Source: a virus
Taxonomy: Duplodnaviria; Caudoviricetes
Virus record (IMG/VR): IMGVR_UViG_3300014203_000012
Span: 64,001-128,000 of that record
Length of the DNA: 64,000 bases
Direction: 5' to 3' (one strand)
Every line of letters begins with the position of its first letter. Position 1 is the stretch's first letter. Made by a program: the position numbers and the translations under genes. Below the pieces are notes generated by a model. It saw only the letters and a list, made by a program, of their open reading frames with translations, was not told the origin of the DNA and did no database searches. This document shows positions 581 to 62,126 of this stretch, in pieces.

Positions 581-1426
581 TTATTTTTTATAACAAAAAT
601 CCATAATCTCATTTTGAATATGCCGTTCAACCGATACTACGATTCTGTCATAGTTCTTATCAATCAATGTAACTTCTTTACCACTTTCTGATACAGTAAT
701 ACTTTCATAGAAAGTATCAAAGTTATTGATGATGGTATTAAGATTAGCAGATTCGGATAAGATATAATCTCTGACAGATGCATTTGTAACAGGAGTTATA
801 ATTTGGAACCCCTCTTCAACCAGTTGAATATTCCCATTCTCTGTAACTTTTTCAGGAACATAGATATATTTCTTACCTTGTCGTGTTGTTCCTTCACTAA
901 TAATCTTAGTTGTATAAGCCTTCGGATGAGAAGGATAATAAACCCTATCATAAGTAATAATTTTAAGATTGCGTACATATGCTTTACCTGCACTTTGTAT
1001 AATAGTACCTAATGCTCTAAGAGAGAAAGAAGGTTTCTGCCCATCTATCAAATCATCATTGAATGATTTACCTAATTCATTATTAGTACCACGGAAATTT
1101 GCTTTTACTAAATTACCTTCCATCCATAGTTTAGTATACCAAACTTGTTCAGTTGTAGGATCGATTTTTTGTTGTCGTGCTAAATCATTAGCAGACGGAT
1201 GACCAGCTTCGCCTTTGAAATTACCGCTCGAAACAAGTTCCTGTTGTTTAGAACTAGTAATTTCTTTATATAGATCATCATGTCCATAACATCGTCTATT
1301 ACGATTCTCTTCTTCAGCTTCCTGAATAATGCCTTCTGCAATGACGAAATTTCTATTTTGATTTACTATATTAAATTCTACATCTTTAGCAGACGATTCG
1401 CATATAATATACGCTAATGCATTCAT
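581..1426 (-). CDS. prohead core protease (T4 gp21 / phiKZ gp175-like)
   Basis: Motifs NRNRRCY, GEAGHP (catalytic His), FSLRALG (catalytic Ser), TYDRVYYPS; RBS AAGGAGG. Confidence 0.9.
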   Translation of the reverse strand: MNALAYIICESSAKDVEFNIVNQNRNFVIAEGIIQEAEEENRNRRCYGHDDLYKEITSSKQQELVSSGNFKGEAGHPSANDLARQQKIDPTTEQVWYTKLWMEGNLVKANFRGTNNELGKSFNDDLIDGQKPSFSLRALGTIIQSAGKAYVRNLKIITYDRVYYPSHPKAYTTKIISEGTTRQGKKYIYVPEKVTENGNIQLVEEGFQIITPVTNASVRDYILSESANLNTIINNFDTFYESITVSESGKEVTLIDKNYDRIVVSVERHIQNEIMDFCYKK

Positions 1427-1445: not shown

Positions 1446-1457
1446 TATATTTATGTT
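1446..1457 (-). promoter_or_regulatory. late promoter AACA-N6-TA
   Basis: AACA TAAATA TA upstream of protease; AR9 nvRNAP-type consensus. Confidence 0.75.
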
Positions 1458-8225: not shown

Positions 8226-9977
8226 TTATTCCGGTGTGATATAAACATTATATTCTGGAGCTTCACACAGGTATTGGTTTGTACTAAAAACCATACCGAT
8301 GATCGTAGCGATAGCATCTAAAATAATCTGTTCAGATTTGATGGAACTTAAAACATCACCATCAAATTTTTCAGTTCTGATATTGAATGGGCAGCCATTC
8401 AATAGGCATTGCAATGCCAAATCAATAGACACTGCTTTATTTCCATTACAATGTACCAAGTATAACTGAGAAATAAGTTCAACGTATGCTTGATTAAGAA
8501 CTGAATATATATTGAATACTTCTCCACTTTTTAATTTCTCAAGATCCTCTTCTGTATAATCTTTAGTGGCTTCTCTTTCAAGTTGATTAAATGCTCTGAA
8601 CCCTTCAAAGTTGGCACCAAAACCATAACCATCTACAGCCGAGCTTCGGCAATTTAAAACTGCATCTTCGACAAGATCTTTTACTGCATCACGATCCGTC
8701 ATAGAAATACCACCAACAAGATAATCAACCATATTAGCTTTAAGAGAATTAATACGTCTCTTTAGGACGCCAATCTTTGTGATCTCTTCTTTGGTTTGTT
8801 CATAATTTTCCAAAGTTGCATTAAGACCGTCAAGAAGAGAATTATAAATATCACTTTTAGTCCCATCTTCATTATTCATGAGTTTTGGATTGACAACTTT
8901 AGTTTTCATGTTGTCAGACTCGATAAGTTCAGCAGAACCTGCGAAATCATGAATGTTTTCAGGTGTAGCAGCTAATCCTGTAGCTACATCCATTGCTTGG
9001 ATTTTAGGATCTATGTATTTCTTGATTAGTTTTGCTCCGCTTAGTTTAGCTAAATCCATAAGTAGATCACCTTTATTGATATTAGTAACAATAGAAACAG
9101 GTGGACGGTTTTCTGGAGCTGTAGCCGATAATTGTTTAATCATTTCATCGATTGTTGCATCCATGTCATTACTTATCATAGGGCAGAAAATAACGGTAGG
9201 AACGACTGCTTCATATTGTTTTTGTTGCCGTTGCAGTGGTTCGAAAATATTGTCATACATGATTTTATCCAAGAACATACGCATTTCTGGAGTATCGATA
9301 GGATGCTCGAAGACGTATATTTTTGGATTGCGGATAGAAGATACTTTTCTTTTACCGTCATTGATAAAGGCAGGGTCTGAATACCCGCTATCGAATGTTA
9401 AACCATCATAAATCTTTAGGATATTATTAACGGAATTTGAAATACCGACATCGATAAATACATCCATGCCATGATCGGCATAAATATTTTTAATATTGGT
9501 AGATACTTCTTCATTCCCATTAGTGGAGATCATAGCAATACGATAAATATCATCAAGAGTTGTTTCTTTCTTATTGCTCTGGATAATAACGATTGCTTCA
9601 GCAATTGCCTTTTTAAGATGTTTAATCAGCTCATTATCCGAAATACCATATCGTTTACTAGCATCTACTAGCATATTAAAGACTAGAAACGAAAGAATAA
9701 TAGCAGATGTTGTTCCGTCACCAACAGTAGTAACAATTCTACGGGTAATATCTTCAAGATCGTCCCGCATTGTAAATTCGATAGGCTTGTTGAATTTAAT
9801 TGCGCTTAGAATAGTATGTCCATCCTTAGAATACCGTGTCAGTCTATCCTTATCACGAATAGCAGTGACAGAACCAGTTGGACCGTACGAGCACAATAGG
9901 GCATTTGCGATAATTGATAGTGCGTTACTTTGAGCTTCTCTTACCTTTTCTTTTGGAACGATATTTGTATAAACCAT
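8226..9977 (-). CDS. groEL: phage chaperonin (GroEL/Cpn60-like)
   Basis: SYGPTG, SKDGHTIL, VGDGTTSA ATP-binding motifs, VEDAV. Confidence 0.92.
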   Translation of the reverse strand: MVYTNIVPKEKVREAQSNALSIIANALLCSYGPTGSVTAIRDKDRLTRYSKDGHTILSAIKFNKPIEFTMRDDLEDITRRIVTTVGDGTTSAIILSFLVFNMLVDASKRYGISDNELIKHLKKAIAEAIVIIQSNKKETTLDDIYRIAMISTNGNEEVSTNIKNIYADHGMDVFIDVGISNSVNNILKIYDGLTFDSGYSDPAFINDGKRKVSSIRNPKIYVFEHPIDTPEMRMFLDKIMYDNIFEPLQRQQKQYEAVVPTVIFCPMISNDMDATIDEMIKQLSATAPENRPPVSIVTNINKGDLLMDLAKLSGAKLIKKYIDPKIQAMDVATGLAATPENIHDFAGSAELIESDNMKTKVVNPKLMNNEDGTKSDIYNSLLDGLNATLENYEQTKEEITKIGVLKRRINSLKANMVDYLVGGISMTDRDAVKDLVEDAVLNCRSSAVDGYGFGANFEGFRAFNQLEREATKDYTEEDLEKLKSGEVFNIYSVLNQAYVELISQLYLVHCNGNKAVSIDLALQCLLNGCPFNIRTEKFDGDVLSSIKSEQIILDAIATIIGMVFSTNQYLCEAPEYNVYITPE

Positions 9978-12797: not shown

Positions 12798-14606
12798 TTA
12801 TACGTGTGGATAAGTTACACCGTTTGCAGTGTAATCATTTGCAGCATTAACACCAATTGGATCTGGGTTAGTGATATCTTCCCGAAGACCAGTTGGGTTC
12901 ATGATTTGGATACGCCCTTGTACAGCTTGATACTGTAAGAACATCCAGCGTTCGAAGCAAGTAATACCAGGAAGCTGGTAATTAACTGTGTCACGAATTT
13001 CATTGGAAATATACATTTGATAATCAATGATTTTGTACATAATCCTTTGAGTATTACGTGGGCAGAGAATTACAATCAGATTGTTATTATCGCGCATCTT
13101 CTGACTGGAGATGAATTGATAGATACGTTTCTCGCCAGTAACAATGGTCTTTTTGTAGTCAAGCTCAATAGGACCAATGCTTGATGGAGTAGAATAAGTA
13201 TATTCGCGAGGAGTGATTTTCTTAATCAATTCAGGACGACCGAATACTGTAATTGACATGTTCTCATCATTCAAGACTTGTAGCATGTACGTTACTTGAG
13301 TATCAAGATAATCCATGAAAGTTTCTTGTCTCCATGATACATGGGAAGCCATGTAAGAACCTTGAGGAGGCACGAAGTCAAATGCTCCAGCAACCTTTTG
13401 ATTTGAAGGTAAGCCCAAGAATGATTTGTCCAATTCATCATGAATTGTATCATCTTTGTAATGCATTAATGCCAAACGCATCTGGCTCATAATTTTTGTG
13501 ATTTGATTTACATTATAAAGTGCAGTAACATCTTTTACTTCTTCAGGGGACACAGTCGTAGTGATATGTGGAGCCTCTGGAATTTCAAACATGTCTGTAC
13601 GTGCACTCCATTTAGTACGGCAAGTCTTGAATGCAGCAGATGATACATCAACTACAGCATGAAGTCTTACAGCCTTTACGTCAGCTGCATTCATACAAGT
13701 AATCATGAATTTATTTTTCTTCATGTAACCGCTGATGATACCCTTAACTGTTTTGTTGGTGGTAGCGTCAGTTTTTGCAATAACTGTAAATGAAGCCATG
13801 ATAGAACGATCAAATTCGCCATAAGATGGAACGAATTTCATTTCGCCTACATTGAATAATACTGGTTTAACACCGGCTGTTTCAGCAGGAATTATTGCTT
13901 TAGTGGTTGTATCATAATAGCTTGCGCCGATAGCAACATAACTATCAACAAGAATTCCAGTAATACAAGTCTTAATACTTAACGCAGCATCAACAGAATT
14001 GACTCCGAATTCAGTGCTAAGAATATCAAGAGTTTCGTTTTCTGGAAGAGTAATAATAAGATCTTTTGAAGGTACGCTATTTTTGATAGCATCCTTAATC
14101 TTATATTGCTCCAAATACATATCGATCTCTTCGCCGTCTGGAGTGACAAGTGTACGAGTTTCCATAGTCAAAGTGAACTTAGGAGAACGGGCAACGTCCT
14201 TAGGCATTGATTGATCGAACACCGCATTCATCAATAAATTTTTATGCATTGGAAAAGTGATACCAATCATTGGATTGAACGCTCCAAGTGAAGCGGACTC
14301 CATTACACCTTTACGGTCATTGGTATATAATTCAGACATATCTTCTTCGAGTTGTGCAACGTCTTCGATGTCTTGATACCGAGGATCGGCAGGATCATAG
14401 GATTCCTTAAGGAAAAGTTTTCTCATTTCATCATTTGTGGAATTCTTTTGGAAAAACTGGGATGGAGCATCATATACACTAATCCCCGATTCCGTAACAC
14501 AACTTTTTGCAAGATCAAGGAACTGTTCTGCTAATTTATGCATTGGGTCTTTTCTATAACCTCTGGATGTAGCCAAAGGATTTTCGCGCGTACCTACAGC
14601 TGGCAT
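12798..14606 (-). CDS. major capsid protein precursor
   Basis: 602 aa, strong RBS, late promoter, probable propeptide ending VME|S, high-expression codon usage, jumbo-phage MCP-like C-terminus (QAVQGRIQI). Confidence 0.75.
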   Translation of the reverse strand: MPAVGTRENPLATSRGYRKDPMHKLAEQFLDLAKSCVTESGISVYDAPSQFFQKNSTNDEMRKLFLKESYDPADPRYQDIEDVAQLEEDMSELYTNDRKGVMESASLGAFNPMIGITFPMHKNLLMNAVFDQSMPKDVARSPKFTLTMETRTLVTPDGEEIDMYLEQYKIKDAIKNSVPSKDLIITLPENETLDILSTEFGVNSVDAALSIKTCITGILVDSYVAIGASYYDTTTKAIIPAETAGVKPVLFNVGEMKFVPSYGEFDRSIMASFTVIAKTDATTNKTVKGIISGYMKKNKFMITCMNAADVKAVRLHAVVDVSSAAFKTCRTKWSARTDMFEIPEAPHITTTVSPEEVKDVTALYNVNQITKIMSQMRLALMHYKDDTIHDELDKSFLGLPSNQKVAGAFDFVPPQGSYMASHVSWRQETFMDYLDTQVTYMLQVLNDENMSITVFGRPELIKKITPREYTYSTPSSIGPIELDYKKTIVTGEKRIYQFISSQKMRDNNNLIVILCPRNTQRIMYKIIDYQMYISNEIRDTVNYQLPGITCFERWMFLQYQAVQGRIQIMNPTGLREDITNPDPIGVNAANDYTANGVTYPHV

Positions 14607-14675: not shown

Positions 14676-14687
14676 TACTATATTGTT
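14676..14687 (-). promoter_or_regulatory. late promoter AACA-N6-TA with 5' leader hairpin
   Basis: AACA ATATAG TA; AACCT-GATT-AGGTT hairpin follows. Confidence 0.75.
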
Positions 14688-32990: not shown

Positions 32991-33359
32991 TTATAATGAA
33001 TCTAATGTTTTTGTTTCTTTATCAAAGGTTAGGTTGTACACAATTTCATCTACCACGATAGCTATTTTAACTGCCTTATCTGATTCTGATATAGCAACTT
33101 CAGTGGCAATCAATTCTGGTAGGTATGTAGTCATCTGTTCTTCGATATCAGCTTTAAGCTGTTCTAAATCTTCACTAGACGAATAGCGATATCTAGACAC
33201 AATGCCAATACCCATATCAGGTCTAGTTGGAAATGTTCCCTTTTCTAATAGTATCAATTCTACAAGTTTGACGCATGTAGCATCTTGATCTTCTAAAACT
33301 TTGGGTCTGTTGAATTCATTCAACGAAAGAGTGTATTCTCTCAAAGTAACAACACTCAT
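32991..33359 (-). CDS. baseplate wedge protein, gp25/GPW-like
   Basis: LILLEKGTFPTRPDMGIGI...YLPE; AACT-N6-TA at 33387-33398. Confidence 0.8.
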   Translation of the reverse strand: MSVVTLREYTLSLNEFNRPKVLEDQDATCVKLVELILLEKGTFPTRPDMGIGIVSRYRYSSSEDLEQLKADIEEQMTTYLPELIATEVAISESDKAVKIAIVVDEIVYNLTFDKETKTLDSL

Positions 33360-33442: not shown

Positions 33443-33454
33443 AACATACCAATA
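33443..33454 (+). promoter_or_regulatory. late promoter AACA-N6-TA
   Basis: AACA TACCAA TA then RBS AGGGAGG. Confidence 0.75.
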
Positions 33455-33476: not shown

Positions 33477-33839
33477 ATGGCTAAAAGAATTGGCAGATCG
33501 AATTTAGTGGGAAAAACTTTTGGATATCGTGAAGTTCTTGAATATGATGAAAAATCTAGAGATACTGGGGCGTCTAGATGTGTATGTGGAAAAATATCCA
33601 GTGTTAGTAGCGGGTCTTTACGAGAGGCAACAAATTGTGGATGCCTAAAAATAAAAGATCTTACAGATCGAAGATTTGGAAAATTGGTAGCGATTAAGAG
33701 AGTATATACTGATAATGCATATGGTGTACATTGGTTATGTCACTGCGATTGTGGTAATGATAAAATTCAAATAGTTGAAAGGGTTCCTATATTAACCCAA
33801 ATAATAAATAGAGTTGATATAAATAATAAGGAGAGCTGA
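33477..33839 (+). pseudogene. internally deleted HNH endonuclease derivative (Zn-finger modules, no nuclease domain)
   Basis: NLVGKTFG, DLTDRRFG, WLCHCDCG then directly the C-terminal tail motifs; HNH core missing. Confidence 0.7.
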
Positions 33840-33846
33840 AAGGATT

Positions 33847-36135
33847 ATGAAAAAATATAATTGCCCATATTGCTCTAAACGTTTTTCTAGAGATGAGTTA
33901 AGTTCACACTTGGATACTGAGCATATTGAAATGATTCCAGACGGTATAACTGCTATTCAACTTGTATTTAATCTGGTAAACAAACGTGATCATGGAATAT
34001 GTGTTGTTTGTAAAAGAGCTACTGAATGGCAGGAAAATAATGGAAAATACGGTAGGTTATGTGGACGTACACAATGCGCAGACGCGTTAAGAGACGCATA
34101 TAAAAAGAATATGATTAAAGTACACGGTAAGACTACTCTATTAAATGACCCTGAAATACAAAAGCGTATGTTAGCAAATAGAGGCATCTCTGGTAAGTAT
34201 AAGTTTACTGATGGTGGATATCATGTATATACTGGCAGTTACGAACATCGTGCGCTTGAATTCATAGATAAAGTGCTAGGATTTAGCTCCAGTGAGATAA
34301 TGTGTCCAGGCCCGATATTTGAGTATGAATATAACGGGGATAAACATCAGTGGATTACCGATATGCTGATTATTCCTTTCAATCTAGTCATCGAAGTTAA
34401 AGATGGTGGTAATTCGCCAAATAATCGTACTATGACTAGTTACAGAGAAAAGCAAGTTGCTAAAGAGAAACTCATATCTGAAATTGGGACGTTTAATTAT
34501 TTGAGATTGACTGATAATGATTTCTCTCAACTGTTATTCAGTATTGCCGAGCTTAAAGCTCAAATGATTGATGATAGTGAAGATAATAAGAAAGTTATTA
34601 TCAATATCAACGAAGAGGTAGAAGCTTTACAAGAGGGTATAAATTATAAAATGATTAAAGATAAACTTATAGGATCTAAGCCTAAGAATTATAATATTAG
34701 GTTAGAGTCTTATACCAAAGCTAAAGAAGCAATATATAACTCTGCAGATGCATATGGGTTTAAAAAATATATGAGAGTATTTCCATACGATCAAAATAAT
34801 AACCAATTAACTTATTATGTATATGAAGAATCTAAAACTTGTTTATTATTTGCAGTGGATCTAAAAAGTATATCTAAAGAAGAAGATCGTAGAAATATTG
34901 TGTCGAAGATAAAAAAGTTTCTTAATGAGATAAATATTGAATGGCAAAAGATTAGCAAATTTAAAGATTTTGAAATAAAACTACATTTAGACACAGATAA
35001 ATATAAATATGGAGAATTTGCTATATATCATTATAATAAAATAAATGAAGGTATGGAATTTCTAGAAGAAATGTCTGTAGAAAGTAAATTAGATAAAGAT
35101 CATACACAAAAAGGAAATAAATCTTTATCTTCATTCAAAAAAGTTTCTATTAATTATACCGAGATTCAGAGATATAAATCGAATATGAAATCTCTATCTC
35201 ATATAAGAACCACTAGAGAATACAAAGGAACTATATTCTTAGATAAAGACAAACCAGTTTGTTATGTAAACGTAAATATTGATACTGGAATGGTGCAAGC
35301 TTTAGAAATATCTAAGGATTATCAAGGGTATGGATTATCATCCCAGTTGGTATCGTATGCAATGAATGCACTACATGCTACTTCTCTTACTGTAAATAAA
35401 AATAACGAAGTAGCAATAAAAGTATATAAACAAATGGGATTCAAGATTATTAAAAGTAGCGATACTATGATAACTATGTCTACTAAAAAGAATATACAAG
35501 AATTCATGGGATGCGCTGGTCCTGGTGGTATGCCAGGTGCTGGTCAAGGTATATACATGACGCAGTATGGACCTAAGAGTACCTTTGGAGATGATAACGT
35601 TGAAGGTTATGCAATCCATAATGATATTATTACTGATAGGATATTACTTGTTGACAAACGAGGGAATCTTACTGTAAAAGAATCTTCTTTTTTACAAGGA
35701 AGAAAGCTTAGAATATTTAAGTACGTAGGCGAGAATGCGCTTGGTTATGCAAATATCATAAGCTCAGTAAACAAAAGAGCATATAGAGAATATCTGTATG
35801 AAGCATTAACCGGAAAGAGATTATTATCTGACGATCAAGTTATTTGCGATGACTGCTTTACCGAAGTATCAGCCGCTAAAATATTTTCAGAATATAGTTC
35901 CGTTGCTCAAACTATCGTAGACCAATATAAGAAGATAATGGGAGAAGAAGTAATAAGACTTCCACTAATGAGTAAAGCTGCTATAAAAGAAGCGTCTAAG
36001 CTTCTAGGGAATAATAGGAGTATAAACGTATTTGAGAATATGAATGGATACTTTGCTGAGAACGCAGTAACTCGTGAAAGAACTGCATATTTTAAAAGGA
36101 TATGCGATATTCAGATTGAGGTGATAAAATGTTAG
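33847..36135 (+). CDS. multidomain late protein: Zn fingers + PD-(D/E)xK nuclease-like + unknown domain + GNAT acetyltransferase + C-terminal domain
   Basis: CPYC..H..H, CVVC..C..C, TD..LVIEVKDG; ALEISKDYQGYGLSSQL..NNEVAIKVYKQMGF. Confidence 0.8.
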   Translation: MKKYNCPYCSKRFSRDELSSHLDTEHIEMIPDGITAIQLVFNLVNKRDHGICVVCKRATEWQENNGKYGRLCGRTQCADALRDAYKKNMIKVHGKTTLLNDPEIQKRMLANRGISGKYKFTDGGYHVYTGSYEHRALEFIDKVLGFSSSEIMCPGPIFEYEYNGDKHQWITDMLIIPFNLVIEVKDGGNSPNNRTMTSYREKQVAKEKLISEIGTFNYLRLTDNDFSQLLFSIAELKAQMIDDSEDNKKVIININEEVEALQEGINYKMIKDKLIGSKPKNYNIRLESYTKAKEAIYNSADAYGFKKYMRVFPYDQNNNQLTYYVYEESKTCLLFAVDLKSISKEEDRRNIVSKIKKFLNEINIEWQKISKFKDFEIKLHLDTDKYKYGEFAIYHYNKINEGMEFLEEMSVESKLDKDHTQKGNKSLSSFKKVSINYTEIQRYKSNMKSLSHIRTTREYKGTIFLDKDKPVCYVNVNIDTGMVQALEISKDYQGYGLSSQLVSYAMNALHATSLTVNKNNEVAIKVYKQMGFKIIKSSDTMITMSTKKNIQEFMGCAGPGGMPGAGQGIYMTQYGPKSTFGDDNVEGYAIHNDIITDRILLVDKRGNLTVKESSFLQGRKLRIFKYVGENALGYANIISSVNKRAYREYLYEALTGKRLLSDDQVICDDCFTEVSAAKIFSEYSSVAQTIVDQYKKIMGEEVIRLPLMSKAAIKEASKLLGNNRSINVFENMNGYFAENAVTRERTAYFKRICDIQIEVIKC

Positions 36136-38363
36136 GATTAGACTACGAGGTTGTCAAACATGTTTGTTTAGATGATAGAGAGATAGCTGATTGGCGTGTG
36201 GCGCATAATAAGATCCTTTTATACAGTAAGTATGAAACAGAGAAAAAGTTAAAAGAAGACTGGGGATCATTTACCGATATGCAAATAGGGGATAGACGGG
36301 AAAGCGATTGGAAGTCTATAGATCTGTTTGGTCTTAGTAACACTGCTAGATACGAAGATATGCTATCAGAATTTCTTAAGAGCGATATTGAGGATGAATT
36401 GTATGATAATTTGTATGTTCCTGTAAAAGAATCTGCATATTCTCAAGCAGATGAATGGAACAAGAATAATATTAATAAAATTATTACCAAAGCAACGTCT
36501 TTAGAAGACTTAGAGGATCAATGGGATGCATATAATAGAATCCCAATTGACCGTAGATTCGAAGTAAATGATGCATCCAATGATCTATTTAAAATGGATA
36601 ATACCCAACATTATTCAATGCAAAAAAGTGAATTTCTTAAACAGGATATAGATGATGTGGAACCTACTTTACTCTATAGCCCAGTTAAAGAAGAAGCATT
36701 AAGATTATACGCATCAAAGATAGATACTATTGGGGCTGCGGAAACTTGTATGAAAATACAAGAATCTACTTTAGGGATAGCAACTAATATTATATTTGAA
36801 AGTGCAGTAAAGAATATTAGTGATAAAATAGATATGGATAATATGATGGCTCTATCTATTACCCCATTCTATTCTCCGTATGAAATGGAAAAGCTAGGTA
36901 TATCTGATATAGATACTGGTATATATAGCGGCGACCCTGATAATCTTCTTATTGGATCTATTACAACCAAACAATGGTTCCAAGAATATAAGAATAAGTT
37001 TAATGGGTTTAATGACGAAGACTATACTAGCCAATCTACATGGGCTGAAACTGTACGAAAGCTATACTCTAATTATAAAGATATAAAGGAATCTGGAGAT
37101 ACCTTTGCTATTAATAATAGAAAGCAATCTATTCTTGATCTTGGATGGAATCCAGAAATAGAGTTCAATGAAAGTAATAGAATATATGCAGATAACCGTA
37201 TAAATTCTATACTCAAAGAACAATATTCTCGATATAGAATTATTGATGTGGAGGAAAGCATATCTTTATTTAAAGAAGAAGCTAATGAAGATTATCTTGG
37301 AGCTCTTAGACAGGTTGCTGTTCGCCCAGTCTACATTGTATTCTTTAACTCTAAAACTATATTCAATAAATTAGTAAGAACTATGACTAAAAGTGTGTAC
37401 AGCCACGTTGCTATATCATTTACACCTTCTTTAAAAACTATGTATAGTTTCGATGCTAAGCGTGGTGGTTTCTCAGCCGAATATATGAAGGACTATATAA
37501 AATCTGGAGAAGTTAAAGCTATTCAGGTATTTTGCACTTTCATAGATGCAGATAAATATGAAATATTGCAATCTAGGATACATGAATACTCTAGAAATAA
37601 AAAGAAATTAGGGTATTCGTTTATCAATCTAATTACTATACCATTTAAAATAAATTATATTGATAGCTCTAAACAAGTTTGCTCTCAATTTGTAGATGGT
37701 ATGCTTAAATTAATAGACTTGGATATTACTCATCGTAATTCTAACATGATATCTCCAGGTCAACTTAATAAAAGTCTTAAAAAATACAAAGGTGATATGT
37801 ATAAAATATACACTGGTGCACCAGCAAAGTATAATCCAGATAGAATAATTGCGTTTATGAATAGAATAGCTAGCACAGTTATTAATGTAGAATCTGAAGT
37901 GCTAAGACCATTCCTTACCATATCTGCAATCAAAGAAGCTAAAGAATTCCCAGTACAGTTTACAGATGATGGTGATCTTCTTATATCTAAAGGTAAAGAC
38001 TTAGACTTCGAGGGAGAGTATTCTAGATGTCATATGGCATTAGTTCAATACGATAAGGCTAAAAATGCAGAAGCTATGAAGTATTGTTTATGTAAGTTAT
38101 GGTATATGAATATTGTTTTGGAAGAAAAGATCCATGATGATAAATCTGATAAGGATAAGATTAAAGAATACCATAAAGCTAGAGCTAAGATATTGAATGA
38201 TCTTAATGGATATATGACTAAAGTACAGAAGTTAGATAAAGACTTCGATATGCTTAAGGTATATAAAGAAAGTCCATTTGATAATAGCGAGATTAAAATA
38301 AGAAGATCTACACTAATTTACACTATCGATTTATTCAAAAGACTTATTGGTGCTACCAAATAA
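36129..38363 (+). CDS. multidomain late/virion protein with permuted papain-like (YaeF/YiiX, C92) domain
   Basis: YSHVAISF (His) precedes VCSQFV (Cys); N-terminal duplicated modules ending PVKE. Confidence 0.75.
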   Translation: MLGLDYEVVKHVCLDDREIADWRVAHNKILLYSKYETEKKLKEDWGSFTDMQIGDRRESDWKSIDLFGLSNTARYEDMLSEFLKSDIEDELYDNLYVPVKESAYSQADEWNKNNINKIITKATSLEDLEDQWDAYNRIPIDRRFEVNDASNDLFKMDNTQHYSMQKSEFLKQDIDDVEPTLLYSPVKEEALRLYASKIDTIGAAETCMKIQESTLGIATNIIFESAVKNISDKIDMDNMMALSITPFYSPYEMEKLGISDIDTGIYSGDPDNLLIGSITTKQWFQEYKNKFNGFNDEDYTSQSTWAETVRKLYSNYKDIKESGDTFAINNRKQSILDLGWNPEIEFNESNRIYADNRINSILKEQYSRYRIIDVEESISLFKEEANEDYLGALRQVAVRPVYIVFFNSKTIFNKLVRTMTKSVYSHVAISFTPSLKTMYSFDAKRGGFSAEYMKDYIKSGEVKAIQVFCTFIDADKYEILQSRIHEYSRNKKKLGYSFINLITIPFKINYIDSSKQVCSQFVDGMLKLIDLDITHRNSNMISPGQLNKSLKKYKGDMYKIYTGAPAKYNPDRIIAFMNRIASTVINVESEVLRPFLTISAIKEAKEFPVQFTDDGDLLISKGKDLDFEGEYSRCHMALVQYDKAKNAEAMKYCLCKLWYMNIVLEEKIHDDKSDKDKIKEYHKARAKILNDLNGYMTKVQKLDKDFDMLKVYKESPFDNSEIKIRRSTLIYTIDLFKRLIGATK

Positions 38364-56177: not shown

Positions 56178-57185
56178 TTGAAAAGTTATTTCAGAGCAGC
56201 AGTAAATGAACATATGGACATAACTGACCAAAAAACAAGAAGTACAGTCCTCTCTATTAATGAGCAGGATCAAGATACTGTGTTATTGTCTTTAACCGGA
56301 AAACTATATGAAATGATTGTTGAAAAAGTAGACGATATAGATTTTGGAGATATTCCTGATACTAAAGGGGATATTACTCAATTGCCAGCATATACTAAAA
56401 TCACTTCTAGTATTGATACTCTTACCGCTATACTAGAGCAGTATAAACAACCTACCGATACAATAGATACTATCCAAAATGCGTTATCTAATTTGGTAAA
56501 TCATAAAGAGTTATTTAAAAGAGGGTACGCAGCTAATATTGAAATCATTATGGTTACTTATAGTGAAATGGCTTTAGGCATAGTTAATAGTATTTCATAT
56601 ATGATCGCAGCTACAATTGAATTCATTAAAAATCCTAGTGATGAAGGATTTAAGATCTCTTTAGATAAAACTGGGCTAGCCAGAACAAAAGATTCTTTGA
56701 TCTATTCTAATCTAGGCAGATTTAATGAAGCCTGCAAACAGAACCAGTTAGAAAACGCATTTGAGCCTCTTATCAAGGCACGAGTAAAGAATTTCACTGG
56801 AATTGAAATTGGTGTTGTTGCCGGTGGTATTGCCATTGCTGGTATACTACTTAACATCCTTCCAATCTTACGCGAAATGACTTTCTTTTTTTATTCAACT
56901 CGTACAAGAATAAGTCAATACTTCGATCTTCAGGCAGATTTACTTGAGATGAACTCTAATGCTATTCGTATGAATGAAATAGATACATTAGATGAAAAAA
57001 ATAAAGTTGCCAAACGTCAAGCTTCTATAGCTGGTGCTTTCCGTACATTATCAAACAAAATTTGTATAAATAATGTTGCTGCGGAAAAAGACACACCAAA
57101 ATCTATGAAATCAGAAGATAAAAAAATGAAGATTGATGATATTGTTGATTCTTTACCGGATTCAGCGGCACAATCATTATTCTAA
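56178..57185 (+). CDS. virion protein with hydrophobic segment
   Basis: 335 aa, TTG start after AAGGAGG. Confidence 0.65.
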   Translation: MKSYFRAAVNEHMDITDQKTRSTVLSINEQDQDTVLLSLTGKLYEMIVEKVDDIDFGDIPDTKGDITQLPAYTKITSSIDTLTAILEQYKQPTDTIDTIQNALSNLVNHKELFKRGYAANIEIIMVTYSEMALGIVNSISYMIAATIEFIKNPSDEGFKISLDKTGLARTKDSLIYSNLGRFNEACKQNQLENAFEPLIKARVKNFTGIEIGVVAGGIAIAGILLNILPILREMTFFFYSTRTRISQYFDLQADLLEMNSNAIRMNEIDTLDEKNKVAKRQASIAGAFRTLSNKICINNVAAEKDTPKSMKSEDKKMKIDDIVDSLPDSAAQSLF

Positions 57186-60275: not shown

Positions 60276-62126
60276 TTAATTTTTATTAAATAGATTTAGC
60301 ATTTTATTCGTTGCCCACTGGTCTAATCCGCCCGCAACGTCAGTGTATATCTTATCCATATATTTATCCCTAAAATATTGCGAGTAGTATAAATATAACG
60401 TTCGTTTTAAGTCTGGTTCGTTTATATTAATACCGCACAGATTAGCTACATAATCCATAAGCGTAATATTACTTAACAAACCTTTCTTAATATCATCATT
60501 TGTAGTAATAGCCATAGCACCATATAATTCCTTAATGGTAAAATGTACGTCTACAGATGTAGGCAATCCACTAGGAGTCCAGCTTCCTTCTTGCCCTTTA
60601 GTGATACTCATATTAGTTATTATACCCATATCACAATTAAATAGACCTTTATAGAAAGCTCTAACAAGAAATGGAGATACATATCCATTCGGCCCAACAG
60701 ATCTTGGAGATACATATCCGACTAAGTGTAGTATAGGAACTATAATATTTAGATATATACTATAATTATCACAATCAGGAGAGGTTAATTTAATGCTTAT
60801 ATCATAATCTCTAGAGAATTGCGAATCGTTCCATATCTCTGGAAATATAAGTTTACCACCAGCTATTACAGTCTTAAGTCCATTCGTAATACCGCCAATA
60901 AGACCATTACTATTTGCCATTTTAGAAACCATATCTTGTTTATTTTGTTCAGTTTTTGCAATTTGTTTATCCGCACTAAATGCATCTAACTCCATACCGG
61001 TCAAAGCTCCAGCTCCACCAAGTATAAAATTCATTTCTCTACCTATATCAGAGATACCATTTACTTTCCCTGCTATCATTGATTGCCCTGTACTATTTGA
61101 GAATGAATCAGATATTTGATTTTCTGAATTTATATAAAATGCTACCCCTCCTCGGTAGTTTAACATGCTATGAAGAGTTTCATTAGAATTGCTTTGCCAA
61201 TCATAGTTTCCTAGTGTTTTATCACCATAATATGTTTCATCTTGTAAATTAAGCAATTTTGCCGCTGCTCTACACATTGGATTTACATGTTTAAAATATG
61301 AGGTCCAATTCACATTTAATCCATAATATCTACCTGGATTGTTTATGAGAGAATCTAAATCAGTCTTGCTTGATCCATCTCCAGTAAATGTCGTAACTAC
61401 ATACTCTAAAATATTTTCCTTTTCTTTTTTACTATAACCGGATAAGAATTCTGGACTTCCAGGAACCATAACGAGTAAAGGTAATTTTGAAACTATTTTT
61501 TCTGCATATTTACGACCAAACGAATCAGAATTGTTGGGATCTATGCGCCTATCTGCGATTTCCATATATTGATATGGCATACCATATACTCCACGCAATG
61601 ACGTTATACGCAATCCATCTAATATAGAATCTGTATTTTTTGTAGTTCCAACAGTAGATTCTGTAGTACTAGAAGTGACATCTCTAGGTGGAGGGGTTGG
61701 AGTTATTGCTATCTCTGGTGGAACCATAATTGTGCCATTTGCGGTTACACTTATATCTGAAATATTTACCCAATATTGATTTTCCCCATTTGATATTTGT
61801 GCCGTAGTCCCTTTTATTGCAACTACTCCAAATGTAACACTAGTTACAGATATTGGTAGGAATCCACCATCTGTAGTTTTTACTTTATCTGTAGAATTAA
61901 ATTTTATATAAGATCCAACTTTTACATCAGTCTTGGTGGTTTCACCAACTTTTTCAACTGATCCGTCAGCGTTGAGTACCCACCCCACACTTGTATGATA
62001 CCAACTATTTGTTACTTCACTAACAACTAAACAACTTCCAGCGATTATACTGTCTAGTATAGGAGAGGTTATTGTACAATCTGAATGTGCATCTACTGTA
62101 TTATTAAATTTATATATATCTGCCAT
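60276..62126 (-). CDS. baseplate hub/tail protein with N-terminal SH3-like domains
   Basis: FPEIWNDS, GIITNMSITKG..W...GLPTSVDV; late promoter AACA CTATAT TA at 62155-62166. Confidence 0.65.
   Translation of the reverse strand: MADIYKFNNTVDAHSDCTITSPILDSIIAGSCLVVSEVTNSWYHTSVGWVLNADGSVEKVGETTKTDVKVGSYIKFNSTDKVKTTDGGFLPISVTSVTFGVVAIKGTTAQISNGENQYWVNISDISVTANGTIMVPPEIAITPTPPPRDVTSSTTESTVGTTKNTDSILDGLRITSLRGVYGMPYQYMEIADRRIDPNNSDSFGRKYAEKIVSKLPLLVMVPGSPEFLSGYSKKEKENILEYVVTTFTGDGSSKTDLDSLINNPGRYYGLNVNWTSYFKHVNPMCRAAAKLLNLQDETYYGDKTLGNYDWQSNSNETLHSMLNYRGGVAFYINSENQISDSFSNSTGQSMIAGKVNGISDIGREMNFILGGAGALTGMELDAFSADKQIAKTEQNKQDMVSKMANSNGLIGGITNGLKTVIAGGKLIFPEIWNDSQFSRDYDISIKLTSPDCDNYSIYLNIIVPILHLVGYVSPRSVGPNGYVSPFLVRAFYKGLFNCDMGIITNMSITKGQEGSWTPSGLPTSVDVHFTIKELYGAMAITTNDDIKKGLLSNITLMDYVANLCGININEPDLKRTLYLYYSQYFRDKYMDKIYTDVAGGLDQWATNKMLNLFNKN

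Follow-up and report, generated by a model that had tools for sequence, protein, structure and literature searches.

Exchangeable modules between glutamate-terminated joints in a gene family of AR9-like jumbo phages, a candidate for processed virion cargo

Why a phage should string a putative nuclease, a segment with almost no detectable relatives and an acetyltransferase into one polypeptide, and why short motifs ending in glutamate (Glu) should stand at the joints between them, is the question raised by a gene in a Caudoviricetes virus represented by IMG/VR record IMGVR_UViG_3300014203_000012. The 64,000 nucleotides (nt) from position 64,001 to 128,000 of this record were analysed and are referred to as the window; they derive from an AR9-like jumbo phage, and also encode GroEL and split, virion-type RNA-polymerase subunits. 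An earlier reading made from the letters only (the sequence-only reading) had described the gene, hereafter the cargo gene, as a 'cargo polyprotein' with putative prohead-protease sites between its parts. Comparison with relatives indicates that the cargo gene is a member of a large family of AR9-like jumbo phages in which an N module and a C module bracket hypervariable cargo modules, and that these modules are best understood as autonomous units placed between short Glu-terminated motifs, typically I-N-E and often in tandem. The architecture is modular, cassettes are exchanged between relatives, the chain is split at its joints in some phages, the Glu motif is conserved, and a prohead protease of the Peptidase_S77 family is encoded in the same window.

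The layout of the cargo gene is as follows, a slash marking the bond behind the Glu in question and residues being counted in amino acids (aa).

33847-36135, plus strand: cargo gene, 762 aa in four modules, as given by the translated open reading frame (ORF), Pfam and PHROG
33847-34557, plus strand: N module (aa 1-237), with a C2H2 zinc finger, a second Cys4 cluster and a putative PD-(D/E)xK nuclease
34558-34635, plus strand: variable linker and joint 1, the tandem ININE/E (Glu256) and LQE/G (Glu263)
34612-34614 and 34633-34635, plus strand: P1 Glu codons of joint 1 (Glu256 and Glu263)
34636-35049, plus strand: orphan middle module (aa 264-401), rich in Lys, Ile, Tyr and Asn
35038-35085, plus strand: joint 2, with KINE/G (Glu401), FLEE (Glu407/408) and SVE/S (Glu412)
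35047-35049 and 35080-35082, plus strand: P1 Glu codons of joint 2 (Glu401 and Glu412)
35083-35502, plus strand: GNAT module (aa 413-552), with its Pfam core at aa 448-536
35491-35505, plus strand: joint 3, NIQE/F (Glu552)
35500-35502, plus strand: P1 Glu codon of joint 3 (Glu552)
35503-36132, plus strand: conserved C module (aa 553-762), ending in IQIE/V (Glu758, 36118-36120)

The modules and their relatives

A C2H2/Di19-type zinc finger (aa 3-27) and the GNAT core both exceed the Pfam gathering scores, in agreement with the single ORF carrying these two domains that had been read from the letters. The N module aligns over aa 1-232 to positions 1-230 of the 236 in PHROG 15137 ('endonuclease', E 7e-45), and its invariant residues in an alignment of 39 sequences include C9, H21, H26, C52, C55, C77, D172 and K185, with E or D at position 183 between the last two. 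The nuclease core itself gave no sequence match in Pfam, NCBIfam or PDB, the PDB searches returning zinc-finger and GNAT hits only. Of the earlier assignment of a zinc finger joined to a PD-(D/E)xK domain, the zinc finger stands on its Pfam match, while the PD-(D/E)xK fold, without Pfam or PDB support, is suggested by the pattern D172...(E/D)183-x-K185.

The GNAT module is matched by PF13673 Acetyltransf_10 (36.8 bits, cut-off 23.6), PF00583 Acetyltransf_1 (28.3 bits, cut-off 20.7) and PF13508 Acetyltransf_7 (27.3 bits, cut-off 27). In the PDB the family profile matches SpeG, Naa50 and RimI-type chains, and the NCBIfam matches of the module, all below threshold, are rimI-like; AcrVA5, a GNAT anti-CRISPR, had been named in the sequence-only reading as an analogy. 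The two strings by which the domain had been recognised, YQGYGLSS and NEVAIKVYKQMGF, are both found in the translation; in the 39-sequence alignment the Q-G-Y-G-L-S stretch is kept as YxGYGL, and a basic N-terminal extension is conserved as well. For the middle module, a search of 1.84 billion representatives brought up nothing beyond the protein itself and one weak, repetitive match (4463 aa); the frame of the module is open through 144 codons despite the 24% GC of its DNA. The C module has no match in Pfam, NCBIfam or PDB, and a search that relies on shared words found no stand-alone C proteins of 119-380 aa near the window C module at E <= 0.001. The GC content is 0.354 in N, 0.238 in the middle module, 0.281 in GNAT and 0.360 in C, as compared to 0.326 for the window, and along the gene it drops from about 0.35 to 0.22-0.28 in 34500-35300; the AT-richness of the inserted segment, previously judged by eye, is thus confirmed.

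Homologues were sought in a collection of 5.8 billion proteins, of which the 8000 candidates sharing most words with the query were scored, and 120 matches were analysed (P-labels). At least 734 homologues of 419-1334 aa reach E <= 0.001, and most among the 120 matches listed align over about 34% of the query, corresponding to the N module, at 33-70% identity. When the modules were compared one by one with the 120 homologues by BLAST, N was found in 119 (the query included), C in 62 and GNAT in 47, while the middle module found itself only. As had been predicted, N and C are conserved while the inserts differ or are absent exactly at the x-E sites: the arrangements N-C, N-other cargo-C and N-C-cargo all occur, homologues of about 470 aa having the C module directly behind N, following INE. 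The opposite outcome, orthologues uniformly equipped with the GNAT, was not seen, and the position of the GNAT module varies among the homologues that carry one. Cargo domains matched in Pfam, several of them below the cut-offs, comprise GNAT, Peptidase_M23, NUDIX, AAA/P-loop, nSTAND3, NB-ARC, SET, PemK, DUF5662 and transglutaminase-like domains. Two unusual arrangements were noted, namely SET and GNAT ahead of the zinc finger in P0067 (726 aa), and a PemK/MazF-like domain, GNAT and C without N in P0114 (486 aa), which lies on a short contig and is possibly truncated.

The exchange of a cassette is most clearly seen in the closest relative among the matches listed, P0002 (733 aa, 60% identity), which is also locus L004 in the scan of IMG/VR described below. 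It is aligned with the window protein through EEVEALxE and resumes at EEMS, the place of the orphan module being taken by an unrelated segment that includes a hydrophobic stretch. In the DNA, gene nt 1-790 and 1209-2280 are about 72% identical between the two, with no match in between, and homology to L003 and L004 ends at gene nt 783-790. Across 119 family members the ends of BLAST high-scoring segment pairs cluster at aa 260 (65 cases) and 549 (31), and their starts at aa 395 (12) and 547 (11). The three boundary motifs pointed out beforehand are indeed found where they had been placed, and coincide with these homology breakpoints at aa ~260, 395 and 547-549.

No phage record is close to the window in DNA; by tblastn, 25 phage records align, over aa 1-243 only. 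Stand-alone relatives of the N module, of about 237 aa, occur in AR9/PBS1, in Staphylococcus jumbo phages, in Listeria phage LPJP1, in phiR1-37 and in Fusobacterium phages. In AR9/PBS1, the S6-like Staphylococcus phages and phiR1-37, uracil replaces thymine in the DNA. AR9 g233, labelled 'endonuclease fused to N-terminal Zn finger domain', and phiR1-37 g237 both terminate at the position aligned with aa 237 of the window protein, and a hidden Markov model (HMM) built from 46 C segments detected no separate C gene in the two loci. The record label of phiR1-37 g237, 'phage structural protein', is the only lead toward packaging in the virion.

Conserved joints and split genes

To locate joint 1, 118 of the 120 homologues could be anchored on the conserved RLT(D/N)N stretch. 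Every one of these has a hydrophobic-x-Glu motif 20-28 aa past the nuclease domain, in the form [IV]-[NH]-E in 115 and I-Y-E in three; among the 115, P3 is Ile (87) or Val (28), P2 is Asn (91) or His (24) and P1 is invariably Glu. In 73 of these 115 another hydrophobic-x-E stands no more than 12 aa further on, and the homologue sequences diverge directly past the motif. Glu256 is likewise invariant in the 39-sequence alignment. The motif is dispensable for the nuclease fold, since AR9 g233 and phiR1-37 g237, which stand alone, terminate ahead of it.

The motif is present and conserved at the other joints as well. Among the 26 GNAT-bearing rows of the 39-sequence alignment, 21 (counted by eye) have a Glu-terminated motif at one aligned column; in P0019, P0028 and P0099 at least, this column precedes C and does not lie directly behind the first GNAT, another hydrophobic-x-E standing between that GNAT and the module that follows, which is either a further GNAT or a P-loop module. 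In 81 of 90 distinct contexts a hydrophobic-x-E stands ahead of the C module, whereas about 48% of random positions have one within 10 aa; three additional contexts of C are ORF starts. Relatives without an insert between N and GNAT read INE/S and continue directly with the conserved leader of the GNAT module. The codons used at the joints are unlike one another (ATCAACGAA, ATAAATGAA and ATACAAGAA), which indicates conservation, and selection, at the level of the peptide and not of the DNA, and rules out DNA microhomology as the source of the shared motif.

Motif statistics were obtained from the 79,040 aa that lie beyond the first joint in 158 proteins, compared with shuffles. There [IV][NH]E occurs 135 times versus 71.5 in the shuffled sequences, a control motif with Asp 84 times versus 70.7 and the reversed motif 53 times versus 71.3. 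The related [IV][NHQ]E is found no further than 6 aa from 11% of 409 breakpoints beyond the first joint, and from 2% of random positions. Given the relatedness of the proteins and the fuzziness of BLAST ends, these figures are supportive and not decisive.

The joints are also the places at which the gene comes apart in nature. A scan of IMG/VR yielded 161 confirmed stretches, of which the best 80 loci (L-labels), many on contigs of 200-290 kb, were analysed. Every ORF of these loci was searched with HMMs for the modules N, GNAT and C, with the following result.

N and C in one ORF: 36 of 80 loci
N and C on the same strand but in two ORFs: 15 of 80 loci
N only: 25 of 80 loci
Gene cut by the contig end: 4 of 80 loci

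Eight of the N-only ORFs (254-255 aa) end in RINK and the stop codon, exactly at the position of the site, with Lys instead of Glu. In L008 the N ORF stops shortly past the tandem site and the next ORF starts with MNTNES-MGLA, in L009 the C ORF starts right at the start of the module, and in L014 and L015 it has a leader of 13-14 aa ending in KINE. The second ORFs of L013, L014 and L016 (start near 8248) have a common leader, MGKVGEK...INE, followed by two different cargoes or by C itself, and a small ORF in L056 begins with MNSINE. The common leader resembles a portable targeting or processing tag. In L026, L027, L033 and L045, a match to the gene that follows the cargo gene lies inside the same ORF as N-C, and the train of modules therefore seems to cross a gene boundary. 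That identical modules are fused in some phages and split in others offers an explanation of why gene calls vary at this locus.

Processing as cargo and the competing explanations

The window encodes a prohead protease and a capsid protein with a predicted site, with which the joints may be compared.

581-1426, minus strand: prohead protease of the T4 gp21 family (Peptidase_S77; PHROG 207 and 3014, 'head maturation protease')
12798-14606, minus strand: major capsid protein (PHROG 20655), with the predicted maturation site VME/S (Glu103, 14298-14300)

The protease is matched by PF03420 Peptidase_S77 (E 3.2e-10, 40.3 bits, cut-off 27) and weakly by S80 (18.8 bits, below the cut-off of that family). 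Among 90 non-identical N-termini of capsid homologues, a hydrophobic-x-E followed by S/A-A-P-L-G stands just before the conserved core, in the window as VME/SA, and the VME/S motif noted earlier in the capsid propeptide is hereby confirmed at Glu103. The cleavage motif of T4 gp21 is worded as L/I-x-E. T4 gp21, phiKZ gp175 and SPN3US gp245 are described as cleaving C-terminal to Glu behind a short motif, Asp at P1 as blocking the processing of IPIII, and propeptides as often having several redundant cleavage sites (PMC9026906, PMC7411985). The same sources report that in T4 the internal proteins and Alt have short leaders for targeting, are processed and are ejected into the host, that fusions bring foreign proteins, nucleases included, into heads, and that SPN3US gp245 removes a C-terminal propeptide of its own (PMC9026906, PMC7411985).

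Together these observations make it somewhat more probable than the reverse that the product of the cargo gene is a processed cargo, loaded into the prohead, cleaved at the joints, retained in the head and injected, with its GNAT acting on a host target. The chain would be produced late in infection and taken into the prohead, where the S77 prohead protease would cut behind the joint Glu residues and give rise to pieces of aa ~1-256 (N), ~264-401 (middle), ~413-552 (GNAT) and ~553-758 (C). The cleaved pieces would remain in the head and enter the host with the DNA, whereupon the GNAT might acetylate a host target. With such processing, the virions of these uncultured AR9-like jumbo phages would contain a customisable enzyme set, active ahead of phage gene expression. 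The family, large as it is with at least 734 homologues and 161 IMG/VR stretches, would then provide a catalogue of candidate effectors for the first minutes of host takeover or for anti-defence, a natural rule for where effectors begin and end, and possibly a tag by which foreign proteins might be brought into large capsids, a use for which T4 has been engineered.

A number of observations weigh against the processing of a head-loaded chain. In the motif counts given above, the Lys control [IV][NH]K is also somewhat enriched (156 versus 103 in shuffles, 1.5-fold), and the z-scores of the motifs are inflated as the sequences are related. Hydrophobic-x-E is a common tripeptide, found within 3 aa of 34% of the 409 breakpoints beyond joint 1 and of 21% of random positions, a modest difference, and the Glu site at the end of the C module is not universal. 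The strict form [IVL]x[IV][NH]E has three hits in the 54 ORFs of the window, when a rough estimate gives about four by chance, and it was accordingly rejected as a genome-wide signal. The window protein begins with its zinc finger (MKKYNCPYC), without a T4-like N-terminal capsid-targeting leader, leaders ending in INE or NE being confined to the second ORFs of the split relatives L008, L013-L016 and L056. The cargo gene adjoins a baseplate-wedge gene and not head genes, and the homologue in Staphylococcus phage DC4, UFVDC4_00081, is not among the protein names in the part of a shallow virion proteome (15 proteins, 26 peptides) that was available. Of the conserved head-targeted carrier with swappable slots that the sequence-only reading envisaged, the swapping at the joints is borne out, while head targeting is uncertain, given the missing leader and the wedge-gene neighbour.

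A further generalisation of the processed cargo is that stop codons and prohead-protease sites serve as interchangeable punctuation of a plug-and-play virion cargo locus, such that any module bracketed by N and C, whether fused or in an ORF of its own behind an INE leader, is loaded into the capsid, released by the protease and injected. This is put forward tentatively, and the chances are judged to lie somewhat on the side of its being wrong. It would imply that these phages have at hand a rapidly exchangeable stock of effectors made beforehand, namely acetyltransferases, NUDIX hydrolases, peptidases, P-loop enzymes, MazF-like toxins and a SET domain, and that the leader together with the site constitutes a portable tag for capsid loading.

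The strongest competitor, although unlikely, is that the chain is a multidomain protein of the 'polyvalent' kind that stays uncleaved, its modules being shuffled by recombination and the Glu motifs serving as linker or docking elements or marking module ends. Polyvalent phage proteins are numerous, and some, the N4 virion RNA polymerase for one, enter the virion unprocessed (PMC5512222); the modest enrichment of the motif beyond joint 1 is also what such a protein would allow. The covalent link is however evidently not needed in the 15 of 80 loci in which N, cargo and C are in separate ORFs, and N-only ORFs stop exactly at the motif. A mere linker leaves unexplained why separate downstream ORFs retain a leader ending in INE, and the P1 Glu is invariant in the 118 anchored proteins, the phage itself encoding a protease of a Glu-specific type.

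Less probable still is that the locus is an accessory, moron-like hot spot between conserved late genes, with products that belong to the tail or baseplate or act in the cytoplasm, with accidental fusions, and with separation by another protease or by none. The locus does adjoin the wedge gene in AR9, in DC4, in the window and in 55 IMG/VR loci, its ORF boundaries are fluid, and the cargo is AT-richer than its flanks, as expected of acquired DNA. Accidental fusions would however not retain an invariant Glu motif while the N module diverges to 33-70% identity. The motif also agrees in class with the specificity of the prohead protease that the phage itself encodes and with the predicted capsid site, and the homologue in phiR1-37 carries a virion-protein annotation. 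A nuclease and acetyltransferase pair that modifies or restricts DNA, in the manner of the Mom-type GNATs fused to endonucleases of the restriction-endonuclease fold in group 2 jumbo phages (PMC7824862), was rejected as scarcely credible since GNAT is present in 47 of 120 family members only, many others carrying unrelated cargo, since the best GNAT profiles are those of protein and polyamine acetyltransferases (SpeG, Naa50, RimI) with no match to Mom, and since an unrelated orphan module stands between nuclease and GNAT in the window protein.

Known systems and the setting of the locus

In the portions of the literature that were available, the concepts nearest to the processed cargo proposed here are the polyvalent proteins (PMC5512222) and the T4 capsid-targeting sequence system. 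Like the polyvalent proteins described by Iyer et al. 2017, the family brings together in a single phage polypeptide enzymatic domains that are unrelated to one another, RimI-like GNATs, peptidases and nucleases among them, in a late or virion gene context and in variable combinations, and theirs are predicted to be delivered with the DNA (PMC5512222). The release of domains is there credited mainly to built-in peptidase domains (MPTase; PMC5512222), whereas the present family has fixed N and C brackets, Glu-terminated joints that match the prohead-protease class, and fission at the joints. The words 'jumbo' and 'AR9' are absent from the text of PMC5512222, and 'prohead protease' occurs in one of its references only.

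The likeness to the T4 internal proteins and Alt lies in an S77-family prohead protease, which in T4 cuts after Glu, and in variable cargo, which in T4 is non-essential, packed into the head and delivered to the host by ejection, with foreign proteins carried as fusions (PMC9026906, PMC7411985). T4 however has separate cargo genes, each with an N-terminal leader of 10-20 aa, while the window protein carries its chain of cargo behind a nuclease of 237 aa and without a leader. The ejection and inner-body proteins of phiKZ, 201phi2-1 and SPN3US are a further parallel, being head proteins of jumbo phages that are cut after Glu by gp175 or gp245, often at redundant sites, and delivered to the cell; these substrates lose long propeptides and are not described, in the passages of these sources that treat them, as exchangeable chains of enzyme modules (PMC9026906, PMC7411985). 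The protease of the window also differs from the gp175 and gp245 systems in scoring as S77 and only weakly as S80. AR9 g233 and phiR1-37 g237 are homologous to aa 1-237 (32-39% identity) and occupy the same position, divergent from the wedge gene, but unlike the window protein they stand alone, without the joint motif, the cargo or the C module. No published description of the family, or of cargo chains jointed by protease sites in AR9-like phages, was found among titles and the openings of abstracts, and one may exist elsewhere.

The immediate surroundings of the cargo gene in the window are as follows.

32991-33359, minus strand: gp25-like baseplate wedge gene
33443-33454, plus strand: element resembling the AR9-type late promoter AACA-N6-TA (AACATACCAATA), at the head of the operon
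33477-33839, plus strand: ORF of 120 aa, an HNH-endonuclease remnant (PHROG 374 'HNH endonuclease' at aa 58-97 only)
36129-38363, plus strand: downstream gene of 744 aa (PHROG 1128 at aa 396-581), overlapping the stop of the cargo gene by 7 nt

The AACA-N6-TA element is the late promoter consensus of AR9 (PMC5312081). The cargo gene had been read as a late gene with this motif in front of it; the motif does head the operon, although it stands ahead of the 120-aa ORF and not directly before 33847. This ORF, which lies between the promoter with its ribosome-binding site (RBS) and the cargo gene, has no counterpart in L003 and L004, where the distance from the wedge gene to the N gene is about 110 nt, and in L004 the promoter element and RBS are found 33 nt ahead of the orthologous gene. 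The same element is present just upstream of the protease gene (1446-1457, minus strand) and of the capsid gene (14676-14687, minus strand). With 48 matches in the window it is rarer than in shuffles (75.6 +/- 9.4), and the motif was therefore rejected as evidence standing by itself, its position and its conservation in L004 being what counts.

The surroundings are shared with relatives. Homologues of the wedge gene lie upstream in 55 of the best 80 IMG/VR loci and homologues of the downstream 744-aa gene are found in 31, and in AR9 and DC4, too, the N gene lies divergently beside the wedge gene.

Finally, among the 54 window ORFs the strict motif is confined to the cargo gene and to two genes whose products are assigned to PHROG 'virion structural protein'.

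56178-57185, plus strand: PHROG 'virion structural protein', with the strict motif at aa 25-29
60276-62126, minus strand: PHROG 'virion structural protein', with the strict motif at aa 566-570

The products of these two genes may be further substrates of the protease. In the second of them, the motif is situated exactly at the end of the PHROG alignment (569-570), leaving over a tail of 45 aa.

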